DNA of 35,279 bases from a virus (IMGVR_UViG_3300029567_000036:1-35279), one strand, 5' to 3'. Positions 4,656-35,279 are shown, counted from the first letter of the stretch. The notes: generated from the letters alone by a model not told the origin. Translations and numbers: made by a program.

Positions 4656-4942
4656 CAGTCACCCTCCTGTTCCAGGGTCTCCGCCACGCTCTCGTCCTCT
4701 GTGGCGCCCTCTTGTTGCAACACCCGCAGCACCTCATCTGCCTGGCGGGCGCAGCAGGTAAAGCTGTTATTCTTCCACCAGGCAGCCATGGAAGCCGCTA
4801 CTGCCACCACCGTTGACACGGCGGTGTAGACTTCATCGTCAGAAAAGGGCAAGGGGTTCTTGCCAAAGGCATTGAGCAATACATTCAGCAGAGATACCGC
4901 CAACACGGCGGTTCTTGCGATGGTTCCTGCGGTTACTTTCAT
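4655..4942 (-). CDS. Holin
   Basis: 95 aa with two TM segments, the motif AWWKNNSFT common in Firmicutes phage holins, and an acidic C-terminal tail. RBS AGGAGG is present and the gene precedes the endolysin. Confidence 0.75.
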   Translation of the reverse strand: MKVTAGTIARTAVLAVSLLNVLLNAFGKNPLPFSDDEVYTAVSTVVAVAASMAAWWKNNSFTCCARQADEVLRVLQQEGATEDESVAETLEQEGD

Positions 4943-7572: not shown

Positions 7573-8262
7573 CTATATGCATAACAGACGGAAGGTTTCT
7601 CTCCCCTTGGGTGTTACCAATGTTTGAGTGCCTGCCCATTTTGTTTTATCATTATAGGATTCTTTGATTTCAAACAATCCTGCATTCTTGTCCTCATACG
7701 GCATTAAGCGCCCGCGTTTATCACGGTATAAATATTTTTTGTCTAACAGGAATGCAATAAAGGTCTTAGGACCGATTCCCAGTTGCTTTGCGGTTTCCCG
7801 AAAATTCGTAAGCAAATTACGACTTACCAATTCATCAAAATATTCTGCCTTTGGTTGCATTGTTTGTACCGCCACCGTAAGTTTTGAATTCTCCTGCATA
7901 GCCGTTCTTAAATTCTGCTCCGCCATACGCAGCGCCCGGGACATTACCATTTCAGGCGTATTCCAAGCATTTTCCAGCTCGATAAAATACAAGCGTGCCT
8001 GTTTACCTCTATCATTGCGCTGGAGCATACAGAGCTCCTTAGCCATTTCAATGGTCAACTGCGCATCATTTCCCGGCCTACCGCGCTCGCCGGTATTTTC
8101 GCACAAAAATGTGCGAAAATCATTGCCCTCCACAAATCCATATTCGCACATTCTTGGAAACCAGTTGCGAAATGAGCTTTTCACTTCCAAGAATTTATGC
8201 AATTCTCTTGCCGACACCGTTGGCCTATCGCCATCGTAATTCACTTTGATTAGCTCGTTCAT
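7573..8262 (-). CDS. Phage antirepressor (AntA/AntB-like N-terminus plus KilAC/ANT-like C-terminus)
   Basis: MNELIKVNYDGDRPTVSARELHKFLEVKSSFRNWFPRMCEYGFVEGNDF... is typical of antirepressor N-domains. The C-terminal part contains AEYFDELV...LTNFRETAKQLGIGPKTFIAFL. ATG 8262 has RBS AAGGAG; the track's start at 8382 is an extension. Confidence 0.75.
   Translation of the reverse strand: MNELIKVNYDGDRPTVSARELHKFLEVKSSFRNWFPRMCEYGFVEGNDFRTFLCENTGERGRPGNDAQLTIEMAKELCMLQRNDRGKQARLYFIELENAWNTPEMVMSRALRMAEQNLRTAMQENSKLTVAVQTMQPKAEYFDELVSRNLLTNFRETAKQLGIGPKTFIAFLLDKKYLYRDKRGRLMPYEDKNAGLFEIKESYNDKTKWAGTQTLVTPKGRETFRLLCI
8095..8120. promoter_or_regulatory. 26-bp palindrome P1 (11-bp arms, aaaa centre) inside the ant coding sequence
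   Basis: attttcgcaca-aaaa-tgtgcgaaaat, a perfect dyad, encoding NDFRTFLCEN on the minus strand. Confidence 0.8.
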
Positions 8263-8426
8263 AAACAAAAACTCCTTACAAAATAATCTTGCAAGAGGCC
8301 CTCGTATTTGGTATAATAAATCTATCAGTGGAGAACCTCTGCTGCTGTTTAGGGATTTGCTTGTGCTTGGTCGTGTAAGCAAATCTCTTTTTTCTTTTCA
8401 AAAAACGCCACATAATGCCGTTTCCT

Positions 8427-8452
8427 ATTTTCGCCCAAAAATGGGCGAAAAT
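8427..8452. promoter_or_regulatory. 26-bp palindrome P2, sibling of P1 with a compensatory change
   Basis: attttcgccca-aaaa-tgggcgaaaat. It differs from P1 only at the two symmetric positions 9 and 18 (A/T to C/G). It lies in the gap between the small HTH gene and ant. Confidence 0.8.
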
Positions 8453-8458
8453 ACCGAT

Positions 8459-8638
8459 TCACATTTTTTGATCATCCAGTGCTGTAATTGCGTCCATAAC
8501 TTTTTGCGTTTCTTCTGCCGAAAAATCATAACGCAGTTTTTTAGAAAAAGTGCAATCGCTCATGCCCAGATAATCCGCGACTTGCCACAGTCGCAAACCA
8601 GAACGAATAATTGTACTTTTGATTTCTGACCCCTTCAT
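8459..8638 (-). CDS. Small HTH DNA-binding protein (59 aa), first gene of the ant operon (Arc/Cro-like position)
   Basis: MKGSEIKSTIIRSGLRLWQVADYLGMSDCTFSKKLR contains a helix-turn-helix. RBS AGGAGG lies 7 nt before ATG 8638. The track's start at 8671 would lie upstream of the predicted transcription start. Confidence 0.65.
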   Translation of the reverse strand: MKGSEIKSTIIRSGLRLWQVADYLGMSDCTFSKKLRYDFSAEETQKVMDAITALDDQKM

Positions 8639-8669
8639 TTTCGCACCTCCTTTCGCATTTGATGTCATC

Positions 8670-8698
8670 ATAATATCATTTTCGCAGTATTATGTCAA
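8670..8698 (-). promoter_or_regulatory. Near-consensus promoter of the ant operon
   Basis: On the minus strand, TTGACA (plus 8693..8698), a 17-nt spacer, then TATTAT (plus 8670..8675). The spacer contains the half-site attttcgcag (8678..8687). Confidence 0.6.
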
Positions 8699-8733
8699 CA
8701 ACATCAGCAAAATATTTTTTTGTCGTTTTATTG

Positions 8734-8762
8734 TTGACATATTCCCTCTTATGTGCTATTTT
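8734..8762 (+). promoter_or_regulatory. Divergent promoter for the XRE regulator
   Basis: TTGACA at 8734..8739, a 17-nt spacer ending in TGc, then TATTTT at 8757..8762. Its -35 block ttgttgacat is the exact reverse complement of atgtcaacaa (8692..8701) in the opposing promoter. Confidence 0.55.
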
Positions 8763-8801
8763 TAATTTAGACACAAAAACAATTATATTGAGGTGTTGAA
8801 A

Positions 8802-9344
8802 ATGACGAATATTAACTACAAGGAAGTTGGCAATAGATTAAAACGACTGATTGCAGAAAAAAATATGAACCAAATTGAGTTTGCAAAGCTCTGTAATGTG
8901 AGCGAAGCTACTTTGCGATTGCATATTCGCGGTGAAATAAAGAAAGGGATCAACTGTGATTGCTTATATGCATATAGCCGGGAACTCAATGTTTCAATGG
9001 AGTATCTACTTACAGGCGTTGAAACAAAGAAGCCCATTGCAATAAAGTATGTAGACATTATCAATGCAATCAACCTCTTGATCGATGCATTTGGGACCGA
9101 AATTATCAGCCCATGCAGTGAGGAGTTTGCGGACTGTTTATACATTGCAGATGAGGCTATCCAAACCTACTTGGAAAAAATCAGGCTTAACGGACATATT
9201 CGCGAAGATCTTGAAAGAATCAACGAGGGTGAAACATACAACAAAATGCGTAGAGAGTGGGCAGGATTATCTTGCAACAGATATAGTCACACTACAAAGA
9301 AGATCATCCCCTACGATGACGATGACGACAACTTGCCCTTCTAA
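8802..9344 (+). CDS. XRE-family HTH regulator (180 aa) with an SSB-tip-like acidic C-terminus (Mnt-like position)
   Basis: The N-terminus is LKRLIAEKNMNQIEFAKLCNVSEATLRLHIRGE (HTH_XRE). RBS GAGGTG lies 6 nt before ATG 8802. The C-terminus is ...IIPYDDDDDNLPF. Confidence 0.75.
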   Translation: MTNINYKEVGNRLKRLIAEKNMNQIEFAKLCNVSEATLRLHIRGEIKKGINCDCLYAYSRELNVSMEYLLTGVETKKPIAIKYVDIINAINLLIDAFGTEIISPCSEEFADCLYIADEAIQTYLEKIRLNGHIREDLERINEGETYNKMRREWAGLSCNRYSHTTKKIIPYDDDDDNLPF

Positions 9345-12569: not shown

Positions 12570-12938
12570 TTAGCGCTCGATGGCGTCTACTTTGTAGTTG
12601 ATGAAATACCGGCAATTCCTGGCACCGGAATAGGCTGTCCAACTGGGCGTACCAAAGTAGCAGTTGAACGAAAACACCGTATTCCCGGAAGTATCCTCCA
12701 GTTTAATAGAATGCCAGGGCTTACCCGCATTGTTGATCACGCCGTTTAGCTTGTCCAATTCCGCCCGGGTCAAGGGCGGAAAGGACAACTGCCTTGTTTT
12801 TTTGACCTGAACGATACTGCCGTTCATATAAGCTGACTTGGAGCGGCCCGTGTTAGAGGACCACACCTTTTCATCTGAACAGGATATGGCATTGAATGAT
12901 GGGTTTGGCATTTTTGTGCCGTCAATATATAGTGGCAT
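12570..12938 (-). CDS. Small tail protein in the distal-tail position (function assigned by position only)
   Basis: Lies between the tape measure and the Tal-like gene. RBS AGGAGGG. Confidence 0.4.
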   Translation of the reverse strand: MPLYIDGTKMPNPSFNAISCSDEKVWSSNTGRSKSAYMNGSIVQVKKTRQLSFPPLTRAELDKLNGVINNAGKPWHSIKLEDTSGNTVFSFNCYFGTPSWTAYSGARNCRYFINYKVDAIER

Positions 12939-12949
12939 ACCGTCCCTCC

Positions 12950-15739
12950 TTACGCTGTGGCCGTAACTGGGTCACGGCCTTTCTTTTCTGTTTGGTTCAC
13001 ATCGTCCAGCACCACCGTGCTTAAATGCTTACCGCCCACATATACCGGGATCGTTACATTGACCGCCTGCCCGCTGCTACCCAGCATTTGCACCATCATT
13101 GCAGCTACCTTGCTGATCCACTGGGTGTTTCGCTCCAAAGGCACAACAGCCTCGGCGCCTTTACCTTCCAGCAGACCGACCTGGCCTTTTTTCAGCACGC
13201 CGCCCTTTTCCAGCTCTGGGATAGTGGGTATAGAAAACAACTGGTACTGGCCGTTGGTCACGCTCACGCCCAGGGCGCTAAGCACATTAGACAGTGTGCT
13301 GCCAACGCTAATCAGCAGCTTGTCATTGATCTTGCCAACCATATTGTTGACCAGTTTGATCACACCGTTTAAGGGGCCTTTGAACGCATTGGTAAAGGTG
13401 GCTTTCAAATTCTTCAGGCCGTTCTTTAAGCCGGTCACGATCTTACCGCCAAGGCCGGTGACTTTTGATACAACGCCATTTTTCCCGGTAAAGAAATTAA
13501 CAACGCCGTCCTTAAATCCTTTGAATTTTTGGCTGACCTTTTTCCACAGATCGCCGATACCGTCAAACAGACCTTGGGAAATAAAGCCGCCCTGCTTTTT
13601 CATAACCTTAGACGGCGATTTGATCTCAAACGCTTTTTGGAAACCATTGATAAACGGTTGGAAAATGTGTTCCTTAACCCACTTCCATGCATCTCCAATG
13701 CCGTCAATGATGCCGTCCCAAATGCCCTGGGCCACATTGCCGCCGGCTTCTTTGATCTTGTCGCCAAAATAGGACTGTATACCGGACACAGCGTCAGAGA
13801 TAAGCTGTCCCAGGAATGCACACAGGCCGCCTAAAGCTGCACCAAGCGATTCAAACAGAGCGCTTGCCATTCCACCAAAATCAATACCGCCTATGAAGTT
13901 TTCCAGCGCTGTTGCAAGCCCGCGCCAGTCCAGGTTTTCCAGAAATCCGGAAATGATCTTGAACACACCGCTGATTGCATCGGACAGGGTCTTTGCCACC
14001 TGTCCCCAATCAATGGTGTTGAATATACCGTTCAGGTTTTTAGCAAAGCCTGCGCCAAGAGCTGCAAAATCGAATGTGGTCAGAAAGGTATCCAGCGCAC
14101 CGAATATGGTATTTACACCGTTGCCGACAATCTGTCCGGCGCCCTCCCAGTCGAAGTCACGGATGAAGCCGTTTAGGCTCTTGGCAATACCGCTGACAGC
14201 GCCGTTGACTTTGTCCTGTATGCCTTTCCAGTCCAGAGCGTTGATCTTGCTGATAATCTTATTGCAAGAACCGGCGATCTGTTCGCCGATCCCCTCAAAG
14301 TTGCCGCTTTTCCACAGGTTCTTGATCTTGTCCAGATATTGGGAAAACTTATCGGAAGCCGCAGGTGTGGCGGCGGCAGTGGATCCGGACGAAGCGTCAC
14401 TGTCCTGCTGGTCATCGCTTACCTTTGTGATTTGATCGAAGCCGTACAGCTCGTTTTTTGCTTTTGCCAGCTTTTTGGTTTCTTTCGTTGTTTTGCTTAC
14501 GGCGGTAGCCGTAGCATTCACTTGTGAAGCGATCCCCACAGAGGACAGCAAGCCGCTAATGGCATTAGCCACACTCATGGCATAGGGCATGAGCTTTTCA
14601 AACAGCCCCACAACCACATTGATGGCCGGTGCCAAAGCATTTGCAAAAGCATTTTTCAAGGCTTCTACACGGTTATTCAGAGCCTCGTTCTGACTTAAAT
14701 ATCCGGTGATCACCGAGCGCAGCTCGCCGAAAATGTTTTTACACACTTTCAGCCCCAACGATACCACACCTATACGGCGGATAGACTTGACCACATTCAA
14801 CAGGGACTTGCTGGCCGTACCGGAAGAAGCACGCATATTTTTCAGGTGACTATGCACCTTGCCGAAAGCGGCGCCCGCTGCAGATCCGATATTTCCAAAT
14901 ATGCCCTTTAACCCGGAGAAGCCCTTTTTCAGTTTCCCTGCTGCGGAAACATCACCGGTTTGCTTGAGCTGCTTGCTCATACTCTTAAGCGCAGGAGCAT
15001 TTCTGGATATAGACGATTTCAAGTTGGAAAAGCGGTTGCTTTCCGTTGCTATATCCGCATTGGTTTTGTTGATCTGTCCCGTGGTCTGTGCCATTGCACT
15101 CTTCGCTTTGAGAATCTGCGAAGAGGTTTTGCGGATTTCATTTTTCAGCTTGTCCAGCGTATCCGTTTTTAAATTATTCGGATTCAGGCCAACCTCTTTC
15201 AGCTCGCTGTCAAAGACTTCTAAATCGTTCTTTATACGATTGATAGCCGCCCGCTGCTGTTCAATCTGATTGATCGTCATGCCGCTGGTCGACGCTGTTT
15301 CCATTTTGTGGATCCAGTCTACCATCTCCTGATACTGACTGCTTACACCGGCGATGCCGTCCTTATAGGACTTCAAAAACTCCTGCTGTGCCCGGTAAGT
15401 GGCTGTTACCTCTTTTAAGCGGCTGGACAACTGCTTGTATGTTTCGTCCTGGCTGTGCAGCTGATCTTTCAGCTGTCTGGCTTTTGCCGTATACTCGGAT
15501 ATTTTCGCAGCACTGCTCATAGCGGCCTGCACATTGCGCTCTTGGCTCTTAATAAGCGTATCCACCTGCTTTCCCATCTTCCTTGTATCAGAAGAGGCGG
15601 AAGACATTGCCTTGGCAGTCACCGTCTTAATTTTATCCGTCACGCCGGACAGCTGCTTCAGCTCGGCTTGGAGAGAGGCCATGCTCTTTTTGTACTGGCT
15701 AATATCCGCAGTAAATCGTGTTACCAATTCCTGATCCAC
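12950..15739 (-). CDS. Tail tape measure protein
   Basis: 929 aa with a coiled-coil N-terminal half and Gly-rich/hydrophobic segments. It sits after the G/T chaperone pair. GTG start with RBS AGGAGGTG. Confidence 0.85.
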   Translation of the reverse strand: MDQELVTRFTADISQYKKSMASLQAELKQLSGVTDKIKTVTAKAMSSASSDTRKMGKQVDTLIKSQERNVQAAMSSAAKISEYTAKARQLKDQLHSQDETYKQLSSRLKEVTATYRAQQEFLKSYKDGIAGVSSQYQEMVDWIHKMETASTSGMTINQIEQQRAAINRIKNDLEVFDSELKEVGLNPNNLKTDTLDKLKNEIRKTSSQILKAKSAMAQTTGQINKTNADIATESNRFSNLKSSISRNAPALKSMSKQLKQTGDVSAAGKLKKGFSGLKGIFGNIGSAAGAAFGKVHSHLKNMRASSGTASKSLLNVVKSIRRIGVVSLGLKVCKNIFGELRSVITGYLSQNEALNNRVEALKNAFANALAPAINVVVGLFEKLMPYAMSVANAISGLLSSVGIASQVNATATAVSKTTKETKKLAKAKNELYGFDQITKVSDDQQDSDASSGSTAAATPAASDKFSQYLDKIKNLWKSGNFEGIGEQIAGSCNKIISKINALDWKGIQDKVNGAVSGIAKSLNGFIRDFDWEGAGQIVGNGVNTIFGALDTFLTTFDFAALGAGFAKNLNGIFNTIDWGQVAKTLSDAISGVFKIISGFLENLDWRGLATALENFIGGIDFGGMASALFESLGAALGGLCAFLGQLISDAVSGIQSYFGDKIKEAGGNVAQGIWDGIIDGIGDAWKWVKEHIFQPFINGFQKAFEIKSPSKVMKKQGGFISQGLFDGIGDLWKKVSQKFKGFKDGVVNFFTGKNGVVSKVTGLGGKIVTGLKNGLKNLKATFTNAFKGPLNGVIKLVNNMVGKINDKLLISVGSTLSNVLSALGVSVTNGQYQLFSIPTIPELEKGGVLKKGQVGLLEGKGAEAVVPLERNTQWISKVAAMMVQMLGSSGQAVNVTIPVYVGGKHLSTVVLDDVNQTEKKGRDPVTATA

Positions 15740-32623: not shown

Positions 32624-33103
32624 TCACTTGATCACGCAGCCGGGGGTCTCAATCAGTGCCGCACCGGCTACCGTCTCCCCCGCCAACAGAGCTTTTCGGA
32701 TAGACGCCTTGTCCACCTTGGGCGGCTGGGGCTGCATGTATTCCGCCGGCACCGCTGCCAGATTGAACACATCCACCGACTTGCTCGATGTACTGGTCAG
32801 CACGAACCGTCCGGCCTGCACCTTATCCTGCTGGGTGGCAGCCAGGTACTGTGCCAGGGTCTTCTTCATGCGCTTAATGGCGTTGTCCGCCCGCTTCTGT
32901 TTTTCAGCGAAGAAGTCCTTTTCTCGCTTGTAGTCCTCCGCATCCGCCGTCAGCTGCCGGATCACCATACCGTAGTCCTCCAGCTTCTCCGGCACCATCA
33001 TGCTGTCCAGTGTGTCCTGGACCGTCTGTTCATCAATCTCTCCGGCTTCCAGCAGCTCCATCAGCTGGGCTGCCTGGCCGGTCAGTTCATACAGTGTCGC
33101 CAT
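32624..33103 (-). CDS. Siphovirus Gp157-family protein
   Basis: Contains MATLYELTGQAAQLMELLEAGEID...PKVDKASIRKALLAGETVAGAAL. Confidence 0.65.
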   Translation of the reverse strand: MATLYELTGQAAQLMELLEAGEIDEQTVQDTLDSMMVPEKLEDYGMVIRQLTADAEDYKREKDFFAEKQKRADNAIKRMKKTLAQYLAATQQDKVQAGRFVLTSTSSKSVDVFNLAAVPAEYMQPQPPKVDKASIRKALLAGETVAGAALIETPGCVIK

Positions 33104-33221
33104 ATCGTTCTCCTTTGTCTATATTCAATACAATGCGGGCCTTTGCCCGCTCCTCCGGGTCGCAGTCTTGGGGGCAAAAGCCGTAGTCCTGCACAAACTT
33201 GTCCATCTCTGCGTTGGTCAT
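33087..33221 (-). CDS. Hypothetical 44-aa protein
   Basis: MTNAEMDKFVQDYGFCPQDCDPEERAKARIVLNIDKGERYGDTV, with a TGATG overlap and RBS GGGGGTG. Confidence 0.4.
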   Translation of the reverse strand: MTNAEMDKFVQDYGFCPQDCDPEERAKARIVLNIDKGERYGDTV

Positions 33222-33448
33222 CAGATCACCCCCAGGTCGTAGCAGCTGCGAAGCCAGTTTTCGCTGCGCCGTACAATGGTCACTTCCTTGTTGTTCTCGT
33301 CCAGCAGCTGCTCCAACTTCTCGCAAGCACATTCCCAGCAGTAGCTGCCGCTGGGCTCATCGTTGCCTGCACCGATGGAGAACCCATAGCCCTCAATAGC
33401 AATGTCGCAGCTGTCACAGGCGATCACGCCCGCCTCTTTGTCATACAT
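33221..33448 (-). CDS. Hypothetical 75-aa zinc-ribbon protein (CxxC...CxxC)
   Basis: MYDKEAGVIACDSCDIAIEG...YCWECACEKL, with RBS AGGAGG. An alternative ATG at 33454 is possible. Confidence 0.5.
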   Translation of the reverse strand: MYDKEAGVIACDSCDIAIEGYGFSIGAGNDEPSGSYCWECACEKLEQLLDENNKEVTIVRRSENWLRSCYDLGVI

Positions 33449-33683
33449 CGGCATTCTCCTCCTGCTTGTCTTCGTCATACACCAGCGGGCGAACAAACCC
33501 ATACGCCTTAGGCAGCGTCAGCAGAGCCTCGCTCACAGGTACAGACACAGCCTCCAACACATCGTATGTACAGCCCTGCACGGCCACTCTGTAACCGGAC
33601 TGTATATCGCTGAACCCAGGAGCACGGCACACCTTGCCGTTGGTCATGATCACCAAATCCATATATTCATTACTCATTGTCAT
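33441..33683 (-). CDS. Hypothetical 80-aa protein
   Basis: ORF in the early operon that overlaps its neighbours. Confidence 0.5.
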   Translation of the reverse strand: MTMSNEYMDLVIMTNGKVCRAPGFSDIQSGYRVAVQGCTYDVLEAVSVPVSEALLTLPKAYGFVRPLVYDEDKQEENADV

Positions 33684-33975
33684 TGTCCTTTCCCAGTTTT
33701 AAGGCGTGCAGATACGCCACATCAAAATCTGTCAGCGGCGCCAGCAGCACCACTCTATCCTTATCATCTTCAACCACCAGCTGCTTGTCCTGTCGGAGCT
33801 CGTCCTCGTCCTTGGGTAGTACGAACACTGCCAGGGCGATCAGTGCGCAGCCGGTGCCACTGATTACAACGGACACCCACCAGTACGGATTATCCGCCAC
33901 AAGGCAACAACCCAACATCACCAGCAGAAAGCCGGTGATCACCAGCACTATCCCTGCCTTTTCTCTTTTCGTCAT
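33670..33975 (-). CDS. Hypothetical two-TM membrane protein
   Basis: TM segments AGIVLVITGFLLVMLGCCLV and WWVSVVISGTGCALIALAVFVL. The C-terminus AYLHALKLGKD is shared with the mini-ORF 28109..28177. Confidence 0.55.
   Translation of the reverse strand: MTKREKAGIVLVITGFLLVMLGCCLVADNPYWWVSVVISGTGCALIALAVFVLPKDEDELRQDKQLVVEDDKDRVVLLAPLTDFDVAYLHALKLGKDNDNE
33686..33729. repeat. Dispersed 44-bp repeat, copy B
   Basis: See 28122..28165. Confidence 0.85.
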
Positions 33976-34154
33976 ATCTTCGCCAACTCCTTAACCTCGT
34001 CCGGGTGCTGGGCGTAGTAGTCGCTCATGCTCTCTGTGAGCCGGTGCGCCATCGCCGCCAGCATGCGGCTGTGTTCTTCTTCCGTCAAGTCCTCCAAGGG
34101 CTTAACCTTGCCATCCACCATAACCATGATCACGGTGGTCAGTTCTTTCTTCAT
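33972..34154 (-). CDS. Hypothetical 60-aa protein, first ORF after the noncoding gap of the early operon
   Basis: RBS GAGGTG lies 5 nt upstream of the ATG. Confidence 0.55.
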   Translation of the reverse strand: MKKELTTVIMVMVDGKVKPLEDLTEEEHSRMLAAMAHRLTESMSDYYAQHPDEVKELAKI

Positions 34155-34201
34155 TTCGTCACCTCAATTAAAGTTACGCAAGGCCGGATTGTCCGTATGC
34201 C

Positions 34202-34230
34202 TTGACTTTTTTTCTCTCAACGCCTATACT
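34202..34230 (+). promoter_or_regulatory. Near-consensus sigma70 promoter pointing against the early operon
   Basis: TTGACT at 34202..34207, a 17-nt spacer, then TATACT at 34225..34230. Confidence 0.55.
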
Positions 34231-34236
34231 ATAGGT

Positions 34237-34314
34237 GTTGATAATTGTGTTTACTCATTATATTAAGCTTATCAACTCCTTCGACCGACTGTTCCCGCAG
34301 TCGGTCCTTTTTAT
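34237..34314 (+). ncRNA. Candidate small RNA of about 78 nt, antisense to the early transcript
   Basis: The predicted transcript starts with the stem gttgataa (34237..34244) pairing with ttatcaac (34269..34276). It ends in a terminator hairpin. There is no credible ORF. Confidence 0.45.
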
Positions 34315-34316
34315 TT
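34283..34316 (+). terminator. Rho-independent terminator (plus strand only)
   Basis: gaccgactg, loop ttcccg, cagtcggtc, followed by ctttttattt. There is no U-tract in the minus-strand reading. Confidence 0.7.
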
Positions 34317-34383
34317 GCCAGCCCTTAAATCAGCAGCAGACCGCCCGCTGCGATAAATGTGATGTTGGGTGGGGCGGGCGTGC

Positions 34384-34431
34384 GGGAAATCAAAAAAGAA
34401 AAGAAAAAAGAAAGAAAGAGAAATGAAAAAA
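34384..34431. repeat. Polypurine/polypyrimidine tract
   Basis: gggaaatcaaaaaagaaaagaaaaaagaaagaaagagaaatgaaaaaa. The stretch 34392..34423 is 32 consecutive purines. Confidence 0.9.
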
Positions 34432-34488
34432 TATTTCCCCGCTGCCTGCTGCTTATCTAAAGGCTGGCCGCTCCTGCTCGCCGTCTCA

Positions 34489-34707
34489 TTATTGGGACAC
34501 CTTGCACAAAAAAATATCGACTTTATCAGCCGCTTTCGTAATTTGCAGGACGCTGCAAATTCGTTCAATTTCTCCGGTCTTGAAGTCACTTCTATTGTTA
34601 ATTTTAAGGCTCAATGTGTCCTTGTTCATGCCTATTTTCTGTGCAAGGCTTGTCTGTGTTAAACCCGCACTGGCAATAAAACCTAATAGACGATTCTTAT
34701 TAACCAA
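34489..34707 (-). CDS. Cro-like XRE HTH regulator
   Basis: Contains LLGFIASAGLTQTSLAQKIGMNKDTLSLKINNRSDF. TTG start lies 5 nt after AGGAGGTG. The gene is divergent from the CI-like gene. Confidence 0.75.
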   Translation of the reverse strand: MVNKNRLLGFIASAGLTQTSLAQKIGMNKDTLSLKINNRSDFKTGEIERICSVLQITKAADKVDIFLCKVSQ

Positions 34708-34739
34708 GCTAACACCTCCTTTTGTCTTGCTTTTCGTTC

Positions 34740-34753
34740 CATTTTTGGGACGA
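34740..34753. promoter_or_regulatory. Operator repeat O-a (CATTTTTGGGACGA)
   Basis: Identical 14-mer to 34788..34801. It overlaps the predicted start site of the Cro promoter. Confidence 0.6.
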
Positions 34754-34757
34754 CTTA

Positions 34758-34786
34758 ATCATACCACACCAAGAAACCGATGTCAA
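34758..34786 (-). promoter_or_regulatory. Early lytic promoter (Cro)
   Basis: On the minus strand, TTGACA (plus 34781..34786), a 17-nt spacer ending in TGg, then TATGAT (plus 34758..34763). Confidence 0.6.
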
Positions 34787-34787
34787 G

Positions 34788-34801
34788 CATTTTTGGGACG
34801 A
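34788..34801. promoter_or_regulatory. Operator repeat O-b (CATTTTTGGGACGA)
   Basis: Lies immediately upstream of the Cro -35. Confidence 0.6.
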
Positions 34802-34826
34802 TTTTTTGATTTTCTCCGATTTATCC

Positions 34827-34855
34827 TTGCTTTTTTGGGACGCTTGTGTTATTAT
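34827..34855 (+). promoter_or_regulatory. Repressor maintenance promoter candidate
   Basis: TTGCTT at 34827..34832, a 17-nt spacer ending in TGt, then TATTAT at 34850..34855. Confidence 0.5.
34830..34843. promoter_or_regulatory. Operator repeat O-c (CTTTTTTGGGACGC)
   Basis: Shares the 11-nt core TTTTTGGGACG and lies in the spacer of the repressor promoter. Confidence 0.55.
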
Positions 34856-34877
34856 CATTTTGCAGAGGTGATAATTT

Positions 34878-35279
34878 ATGAACGAAATTGCCGAACGATT
34901 ACTTGATCTCATTAATCGAAACAACGCAACTTACGGCGAATTATCAAAACAAACTGGAATACCTAAATCCGCTATCCAAAGATATGCCACTGGAGAAACG
35001 GAAAAGATACCTATTACAAGAATAGAACTACTCGCCAAAGCACTCCATTCAAGTGCAGCCTATCTTATGGGTTGGGAAGAACCCACCTCTCTCCGTGCCC
35101 CGGAAGTAACAGAAGATACGGTGATCTTCCCGGTAATCGGTGAGATTGCCGCAGGGTATGACTACCCTGCGTACGAGGACTGGAGCGGCGAGACGGTAGA
35201 AATACCCAAGTCTTACCTGCACGGCCGCAGCCGGGACGACTTCTTTGTGCTCTCTGTTAAAGGTGACAGTATGTACCCC
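34878..35279 (+). CDS. N-terminal part of the LexA/CI-like repressor (XRE HTH plus the start of the S24 domain); continues at 1..351 across the circular junction
   Basis: RBS GAGGTG lies 7 nt before the ATG. Contains LSKQTGIPKSAIQRYATGE (HTH) and an Ala-Gly cleavage-site candidate in GEIAAGYD. The frame is open to the window end. The joined product is about 217 aa. Confidence 0.9.
   Translation, partial: MNEIAERLLDLINRNNATYGELSKQTGIPKSAIQRYATGETEKIPITRIELLAKALHSSAAYLMGWEEPTSLRAPEVTEDTVIFPVIGEIAAGYDYPAYEDWSGETVEIPKSYLHGRSRDDFFVLSVKGDSMYP
35181..35279. repeat. Terminal direct repeat, copy B (identical to 1..99)
   Basis: See 1..99. Confidence 0.95.

Follow-up and report, generated by a model that had tools for sequence, protein, structure and literature searches.

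The stretch of DNA analysed here, hereafter the window, comprises 35,279 nt from a virus (IMGVR_UViG_3300029567_000036:1-35279) and represents a temperate phage or prophage, the genes between ~3.7 kb and 34.7 kb being carried mainly on the minus strand. At its right end a plus-strand cI-like repressor gene and a minus-strand PR-like early promoter face each other (Table 1), the promoter being set among three TTTTTGGGACG operator repeats that a repeat search recovered in the cI–cro intergenic region. The repressor gene apparently also has its own promoter (TTGCTT-17-TATTAT with a TG extension), which was read from the sequence and had been missed by the promoter scan. After cro the early operon continues with a 334-bp gap, ORF60, a membrane protein (ORF101), Gp157 and a NinB-like gene, the last assigned on a weak, sub-threshold match. 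ORF60 belongs to a narrow family of 16 clusters, and its AF2 model is confident (pLDDT 89.8) and shows a beta-hairpin plus two helices, for which a Foldseek search of the PDB gave no match and Pfam has no family. The nearest TerL relatives are those of Streptococcus, Geobacillus, Lactobacillus and Clostridium phages (≤59% identity) and the ribosome-binding sites of the window are rich in GGAG, so that a Firmicutes host is probable and promoters with a sigma-A-type consensus are a reasonable expectation. A DNA search against the annotated phages of INPHARED produced no usable match.

A fourth operator-like copy, TCATTATTGGGACACCTT, lies on the cro stop codon (34485-34503), ~250 bp from the three TTTTTGGGACG operators (34739-34856). 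Phages of other immunity types carry an inverted repeat of their own at the cro stop, beside a common GCAAAAAAAT that codes for the cro C-terminal DIFL, which suggests that these copies act as a distal operator for repressor looping.

Table 1. Features of the post-cro region, its early-operon neighbours and the second unit.
Feature	Coordinates	Strand	Basis or remark
cI-like repressor gene	34878..35279, truncated by window end	+	HTH_26 plus Peptidase_S24
PR-like early promoter, TTGACA-17-TATGAT, TG extension	34758..34786	-	11/12 consensus; predicted source of target transcript
cro-like HTH gene, upstream early-operon neighbour	34489..34707	-	HTH_26 and DUF739
Y-shaped imperfect hairpin in early mRNA, 152 nt	34317..34468	-	adjoins sRNA terminator; conserved
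Predicted sRNA, ~76 nt	34237..34312	+	start placed 7 nt past -10, 3' end placed in U-tract
-35 hexamer of sRNA promoter, TTGACT	34202..34207	+	promoter scan; invariant in 17/17 unique ORF60-anchored sequences
-10 hexamer, TATACT, 17 nt past -35	34225..34230	+	invariant in 46 unique module sequences
12+12 palindrome centred on -10, TCAACGCCTATA c TATAGGTGTTGA	34217..34241		inverted-repeat search
5' stem-loop, arms GUUGAUAA / UUAUCAAC, 24-nt loop 34245-34268	34237..34276	+	fold, alignment
Single-stranded linker, CUCCUU(Y)	34277..34282	+	fold; invariant in ORF60-anchored set
Terminator hairpin, GACCGACUG(U) / (G)CAGUCGGUC	34283..34306	+	9-10 bp, GC-rich
U-tract, CUUUUUAUUU (DNA CTTTTTATTT)	34307..34316	+	directly after terminator hairpin
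Putative cis target: early-transcript leader, from 152-nt hairpin to ORF60 RBS	34237..34312	-	perfect sRNA complement
Hairpin CAAGGC...GCCUUG, just upstream of ORF60 RBS	34179..34204	-	+ strand 3' arm overlaps sRNA -35
ORF60, first gene past target, presumed regulated gene	33972..34154	-	phrog_26314, function unknown
Second unit of same design (context 7573-9344)	8289-8400	+	TTGCAA-17-TATAAT, 8-bp 5' hairpin, 16-bp terminator with UUUUUUCUUUU

A predicted promoter, stem-loop and terminator unit between cro and ORF60

The initial annotation had proposed a promoter, a stem-loop and a terminator on the plus strand of a 334-bp non-coding gap in the early operon, and each of these elements was recovered. 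The gap spans 34155-34488; TTGACT-17-TATACT is present on the plus strand at 34202..34230; the 8-bp stem is formed by GTTGATAA (34237-34244) and TTATCAAC (34269-34276) around the 24-nt loop; and the 9-bp GC-rich hairpin pairs GACCGACTG (34283-34291) with CAGTCGGTC (34298-34306) and is followed by CTTTTTATTT in the plus orientation only, since on the minus side the hairpin precedes GAAGGAGUUGAU and so lacks a U-tract. The promoter matches the consensus at 10 of 12 positions and ranks second among the promoter-like sites of 33000-35279, without a TG extension. The predicted RNA is held wholly within the gap and overlaps neither an ORF nor a ribosome-binding site, its 5' end at 34237 lying ~70 nt from the ORF60 Shine–Dalgarno sequence (GAGGUG, ~34162-34167). 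The scan called neither a promoter nor a terminator on the minus strand of the gap, so that transcription from PR should continue across it.

An 81-nt RNA from this region folds at -24.2 kcal/mol, compared with -8.5 ± 2.2 kcal/mol for shuffled sequences (z = -7.1; 0/200 shuffles as good). When the whole window was scanned for promoters of at least 10/12 followed by a same-strand terminator 30-200 nt downstream, three such pairs were found, all on the plus strand, against 0.07 in first-order Markov simulations. A mechanical plus-strand ORF with a GTG start (34235..34426, 63 aa) is not plausible, since the loop lengths of relatives differ by values that are not multiples of three (e.g. 7 nt) and break every frame, which bears out the earlier statement that no plausible ORF fits. 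Opposite the linker CUCCUU the early mRNA has an orphan SD-like GAAGGAG; the linker is unconserved in two divergent loci (L003 and L004) described below. A small ORF following this orphan SD was considered and rejected, there being no start codon at a workable spacing and the frames differing by loop type.

The palindrome centred on the -10 is a possible operator, its 5' arm CAACGCC being conserved despite serving as promoter spacer, and short inverted repeats surround the -10 in L003 and L004 too (ATTTGcTATAATCAAAT in L004). No further copy of the palindrome occurs in the window and no CI operator was found near the sRNA promoter. ORF60 was discarded as its binder, since one relative (L028) keeps the palindrome with another first gene, and the protein has no Foldseek PDB or Pfam match and a PHROG of unknown function. 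Equally, a minus-strand promoter using the palindromic -10 was rejected on reading the sequence, its -35 being poor and unconserved across loop types.

Conservation among close relatives

The unit was found in about 75 human-gut phage and prophage contigs, those of prophage-bearing strains measuring 243-769 kb. Copies came from 23 IMG/VR contigs, two MAG contigs (uninformative on the host), three contigs reached via proteins and a scan of human-gut metagenomes that returned 52 matches, ~49 of them homologous, with a pattern in which only the -35 and the linker were fixed. The resulting set comprised 20 different sequences of the sRNA and 46 of the module. In the metagenome subset the pattern itself imposes the constancy of the -35 and linker, which is an independent observation only in the ORF60-anchored subset; the -10 was left free in the metagenome pattern and was fixed in the MAG-contig pattern and in one IMG/VR pattern.

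Among the 46 module sequences none of the six columns of either the -35 or the -10 varies, and the terminator arms are nearly as constant (0/9 variable columns in the 5' arm, 1/9 in the 3' arm), as are both arms of stem 1, each of which varies at one of its eight columns, in the innermost pair only. Variation is found instead in the promoter spacer (7/17), the terminator loop (3/6), the U-tract (5/10, with differing length) and above all loop 1 (22/24); in ORF60, 64 of 183 columns vary with a bias to third codon positions. At least four consecutive T are kept in the U-tract of every intact copy, and at least five in all except L068. At 34302, the only polymorphic position of the terminator 3' arm, C alternates with U in several backgrounds; the change makes a G.U pair in a plus-strand RNA and an A.C mismatch in a minus-strand one. 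Such a distribution of variable sites is what a functional promoter, a pair of structural hairpins and a terminator would be expected to show.

Three unrelated alleles of loop 1 occur, 24-26, 17-19 and 21 nt long, together with recombinants; all of these assort freely with the immunity type and with the type of the large 152-nt hairpin. The homology of the relatives ends exactly at the base of that hairpin, beyond which at least seven unrelated cro/immunity modules are found, so that the sRNA unit belongs to a common post-cro early module and not to the immunity module. L028 (CAVIFY010000084.1, 2100-2500) has another first gene (MREKEGFRDNLERID...) behind the same unit and RBS. A natural deletion in L022/L048 (IMGVR_UViG_3300045988_147960; ~2850-2870 of L022) has brought the terminator 3' arm (CAGTGGGAC) directly against the PR operator region and removed the U-tract, the large hairpin and all of cro; here the sRNA promoter would read straight into the repressor gene, and the prophage is possibly locked in.

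Hairpins of the neighbouring early mRNA

In 30 of 33 unique sequences the minus-strand form of the 152-nt hairpin is the more stable one (mean -68.6 vs -63.3 kcal/mol). It occurs as two sequence types, between which the outer stem is kept through many compensatory changes; L028 has a recombinant with a type 2 5' half and a type 1 3' half, in which outer stem pairing is incomplete. Its loop is a ~45-nt polypyrimidine stretch on the mRNA (polypurine on the plus strand) with length differences not divisible by three, and the hairpin also carries an invariant 23-nt block, GCGATAAATGTGATGTTGGGTGG. The hairpin has no Rfam match and may be an RNase III site or a rut-like element. It travels with the sRNA unit and is missing from L004, and is a neighbour and not a requirement. 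Pairing of the sRNA 5' arm with the invariant loop of this hairpin (GAUAAUUGUG vs GAUAAAUGUG) was judged to be due to chance and is missing from loop type C. The hairpin at 34179-34204 preceding the ORF60 RBS, shortened in L028 to CAAGGC-AUAC-GCCUUG, is followed only by a weakly U-rich tail, CGUAACUUUAAUU.

Divergent and additional units

In two further loci the cro protein is 79% (L003) and 68% (L004) identical to that of the window, and blastn detects no similarity to the unit or the gap. Directly after cro, on the opposite strand, both nevertheless have TTGATT-17-TATAAT, here extended by TG, followed by a 5' stem-loop (UUGAUGU/ACAUCAA in L003) and a 9-bp GC-rich terminator with a U-tract, which in L004 abuts the cro stop; their first downstream gene differs from that of the window. 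A profile scan for more cro relatives returned only the same five loci.

A consensus fold of the family together with L003 and L004 has 17 pairs, with 97.5% of cells paired (RNAalifold, pair counts). Four pairs have changed on both sides (e.g. A-U to G-C at two terminator positions), which 0/500 shuffles reach, these compensatory changes all coming from the two outgroup sequences, the homology of which is arguable. L003 and L004 add three more wobbles, each a G.U pair when read as sRNA and an A.C mismatch when read as mRNA, and all internal wobbles of the aligned set are valid on the sRNA strand only. A covariance model built on the alignment scored the window at 84 bits (34237-34314) and found one copy per related locus, as well as one extra copy in L061 (30.8 bits). 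This extra unit (4731-4845, plus strand) consists of TTGACT-17-TATAAT, a GC-rich 5' hairpin and a terminator GTCGACTGG/CAGTCGGC plus TTTTTCTTTTTG, and lies ~800 nt deeper in the early operon, in a ~400-nt gap before a 250-aa gene that is missing from the window.

Within the window a second unit of the same design folds at -25.5 kcal/mol (z = -4.0). It is antisense between a 70-aa gene (8671..8459; HTH-like by eye, with no Pfam match) and an AntA/KilAC antirepressor gene (8262..7573), and starts ~45 nt from the ant SD, with a repressor-like HTH_26 gene in divergent orientation nearby (8793..9344). Its conservation is uninformative, since only three near-identical relatives were found.

The third and weaker plus-strand pair of the scan (12905-12985: TTGGCA-17-TATAGT, a GGCCGT/ACGGCC hairpin, TTTCTTTTCT) spans the junction of two minus-strand structural genes and would be antisense to the RBS of the 122-aa gene. 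It may be due to chance.

Comparison with known antisense RNAs

Rfam 15 searched at gathering thresholds with the whole window plus five related loci gave no match, and an E-value scan of 34100-34900 returned chance-level hits only (MicF at 23 bits vs 79, sar at 17.5 vs 43); the sar model (RF00262), with a gathering score of 43, reached its 17.5 bits (E = 1.4) on the unit by covering the terminator hairpin only. A description of this sRNA family was not found in a literature search. In sequence the unit has the general make-up of an intrinsically terminated, sigma-70/sigma-A-dependent sRNA gene: the 17-nt spacing of its promoter falls in the usual 16-18 nt, its GC-rich hairpin and U-tract follow on the same strand in the usual range of 50-300 nt, and no reading frame is conserved.

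In Firmicutes, small constitutive stem-loop antisense RNAs directed against an untranslated leader are familiar from the plasmids pT181 (RNAI) and pIP501 (RNAIII), where the countertranscript acts by inducing a terminator in the nascent leader. The window may differ in this respect, the scan having called no terminator on the minus strand from the pairing region to ORF60, where the pre-RBS hairpin has only its weakly U-rich tail.

Among phage RNAs the closest parallels are lambda OOP (77 nt, RNase III-dependent) and P22 sar (68/69 nt) (PMC12197685). Like OOP, the unit has its own promoter inside the rightward early operon, directed against the PR transcript, and an intrinsic terminator (PMC12197685, PMC7067206); it is also of similar length (~76 vs 77 nt), and by analogy would be expected to act via a long perfect duplex and RNase III. 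It differs in lying directly after cro and not after cII, with no cII-like gene adjoining and hence no cII overlap, in lacking any sequence or Rfam similarity, and in a host that is probably a Firmicute. Like sar, it would be an antisense RNA of two hairpins between a small repressor gene (arc in P22) and the next gene (ant), and since sar of P22 damps a lytic-promoting gene a comparable effect may be envisaged here. The placement itself corresponds, in that the unit lies on the opposite strand between cro and ORF60 and the second unit between the HTH-like gene and ant, a layout around 8289-8400 that recalls P22 immI (mnt / arc-sar-ant). Sar, however, covers the ant RBS, whereas both window units stop short of one, the sRNA promoter abutting the RBS. 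The designation 'OOP/sar-like' given in the initial annotation is therefore apt for logic and size and inapt for family, given the Rfam results and the lack of cII, RBS and ORF overlap.

A third precedent, STnc6030 of the Salmonella prophage BTP1, is likewise a prophage antisense RNA; it is expressed in lysogens and excludes superinfecting phages with complementary sequence, which escape by point changes in the paired region (PMC7067206). It differs in being >500 nt long and antisense to late genes (DNA injection, tailspike), and is not a compact early-region unit. In Streptococcus pyogenes, RNA-seq has revealed prophage sRNAs and asRNAs that have no assigned function (PMC4829319).

Discussion

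Our preferred reading, to which we give a probability of roughly 0.55, is that the unit is a free-standing sRNA gene whose independently transcribed product would be cis-antisense to the leader of the post-cro early genes. It draws on sequence features, the conservation pattern, the strand specificity of the hairpin and the recurrence of the design, and the unit most likely constitutes a new sequence family within an already known class of phage regulators. The original proposal of a plus-strand small-RNA unit antisense to the early operon thus gains backing from the variation pattern, the plus-only wobbles and the recurrence of the design in other sequence contexts.

The functional steps are modelled on the OOP and sar precedents (PMC12197685, PMC7067206). 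Transcription would start at ~34237 from the near-consensus sigma-A-type promoter (34202-34230), synthesis being either constitutive or regulated through the palindrome; that palindrome over the -10, for which the model gives no further account, hints at control beyond its reach. The 5' stem-loop would guard the RNA from the 5' exonuclease activity of Firmicutes, and polymerase would pass the CUCCUU linker and stop at the strong intrinsic terminator at ~34312. The presumed target is the untranslated leader within the transcript that runs from the PR-like promoter through cro to ORF60 and the replication and recombination genes. Pairing of the two would yield a ~75-bp duplex, a potential substrate for host RNase III, cleavage of which could uncouple the post-cro genes from the rest of the early mRNA or make their message less stable. 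Neither cro nor the repressor gene should be affected, as the terminator would halt antisense transcription before cro, and strong PR transcription might occlude the sRNA promoter, since the two promoters face each other. Such a promoter pair could make the lysis–lysogeny switch sharper and, in lysogens, suppress leaky transcription of the early genes. The RNA could not control translation as sar does, because its 5' end is ~70 nt from the ORF60 SD and it overlaps no ORF or RBS. More speculatively, the linker might mask the orphan SD-like GAAGGAG, which could stabilise processed mRNA, although this element is unconserved in L003 and L004. The variability of loop 1 counts against a role for the sRNA, in that it could mean that most of the RNA sequence is unimportant.

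That same freedom of loop 1 to change would suit a transcriptional gate, in which the face-to-face promoter matters and its RNA product does not: polymerase would collide with, or block, weak PR read-through into the post-cro genes, and the terminator would only shield cro and cI. The convergent arrangement with the PR-like promoter ~520 bp away and the strong terminator immediately before cro in every relative are in keeping with this. Collision models need no structured product, however, and the stem-1 arms are invariant around a hypervariable loop, while a 5' hairpin is kept in L003, L004 and the second unit, which points to the RNA, for instance its stability, as the object of selection; we regard the gate as unlikely. 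Selection could alternatively fall on the early mRNA, as a minus-strand leader element with processing sites, a 5' stabiliser or the orphan SD, the plus-strand promoter and terminator being by-products. The gap is indeed highly structured on the minus strand too, where the 152-nt hairpin folds better, and GAAGGAG on the early mRNA resembles a stabiliser SD of the STAB-SD or SP82 polypurine type. But in a minus-strand RNA the terminator wobbles do not pair, neither the conserved U-tract nor the two invariant hexamers (-35, -10) has a role there, and the same promoter/terminator logic recurs in unrelated sequence, so that this explanation seems very unlikely.

An sRNA acting in trans, through pairing of the single-stranded anti-Shine–Dalgarno linker CUCCUU or of the loop with the RBS of other phage or host mRNAs, would account for a linker that is invariant and predicted to be unpaired, and a 9-nt identity, CAACTCCTT, does occur at the ORF101 RBS (33984-33992). 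Yet a duplex scan of 61 minus-strand translation-initiation regions did no better than shuffled sRNAs (73% of shuffles as good), a k-mer search of ~800 kb of related loci found only sporadic 10-11-mers and no loop-specific complement, and the linker is unconserved in L003 and L004; trans action is in our view quite unlikely. Read-through past the terminator, antisense across cro into the repressor gene as from a PRE-like establishment promoter, had been raised as the alternative in the initial annotation. The promoter does point towards cro and cI, and the L022/L048 deletion fuses it to the PR operator region upstream of cI; nevertheless, the 9-10-bp GC-rich hairpin and U-tract form a strong terminator that is conserved in every intact copy, no alternative antiterminator pairing is evident in the leader by inspection, the promoter is near-consensus and not activator-dependent, cI apparently has its own promoter, and the unit serves at least seven different immunity modules. 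Taken together these observations disfavour it, and we rate it as highly improbable. Least probable of all is an RNA antitoxin of a type I toxin-antitoxin pair, which the prophage location, the small antisense RNA and the nearby membrane protein ORF101 might bring to mind: the sRNA has no small hydrophobic ORF overlapping it or next to it, ORF60 is hydrophilic, and the first downstream gene differs in L028, L003 and L004.

A rather unlikely extension of the cis-antisense reading would make loop 1 the specificity determinant of RNA-based cross-immunity: when a relative with a different cI/cro immunity and the same post-cro module superinfects, the sRNA of the resident prophage would silence its early operon. 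The three loop alleles, assorting freely with at least seven immunity types, would then stem from escape and diversifying selection, for which the antisense-RNA incompatibility groups of plasmids offer a parallel and STnc6030 a precedent for loop alleles as specificity or escape variants. In a wider form of this idea, such sRNA gates would precede several key genes, namely the ORF60 operon, the antirepressor and the gene behind the extra L061 copy.

Nearly all the regulatory sRNAs known from phages belong to those of Proteobacteria, and a 2025 review of the subject never uses the term 'Gram-positive' (PMC12197685). The present unit would add a well-defined and widely distributed family from uncultivated human-gut phages of Firmicutes, with an architecture that is simple and recurs often enough for a systematic search: a small HTH gene, an antisense promoter-hairpin-terminator unit and the RBS of the next gene. 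If the reading is right, it would place an RNA layer in the genetic switch that is common to heteroimmune phages, with implications for prophage stability, cross-immunity in the gut and synthetic switch design in Firmicutes.
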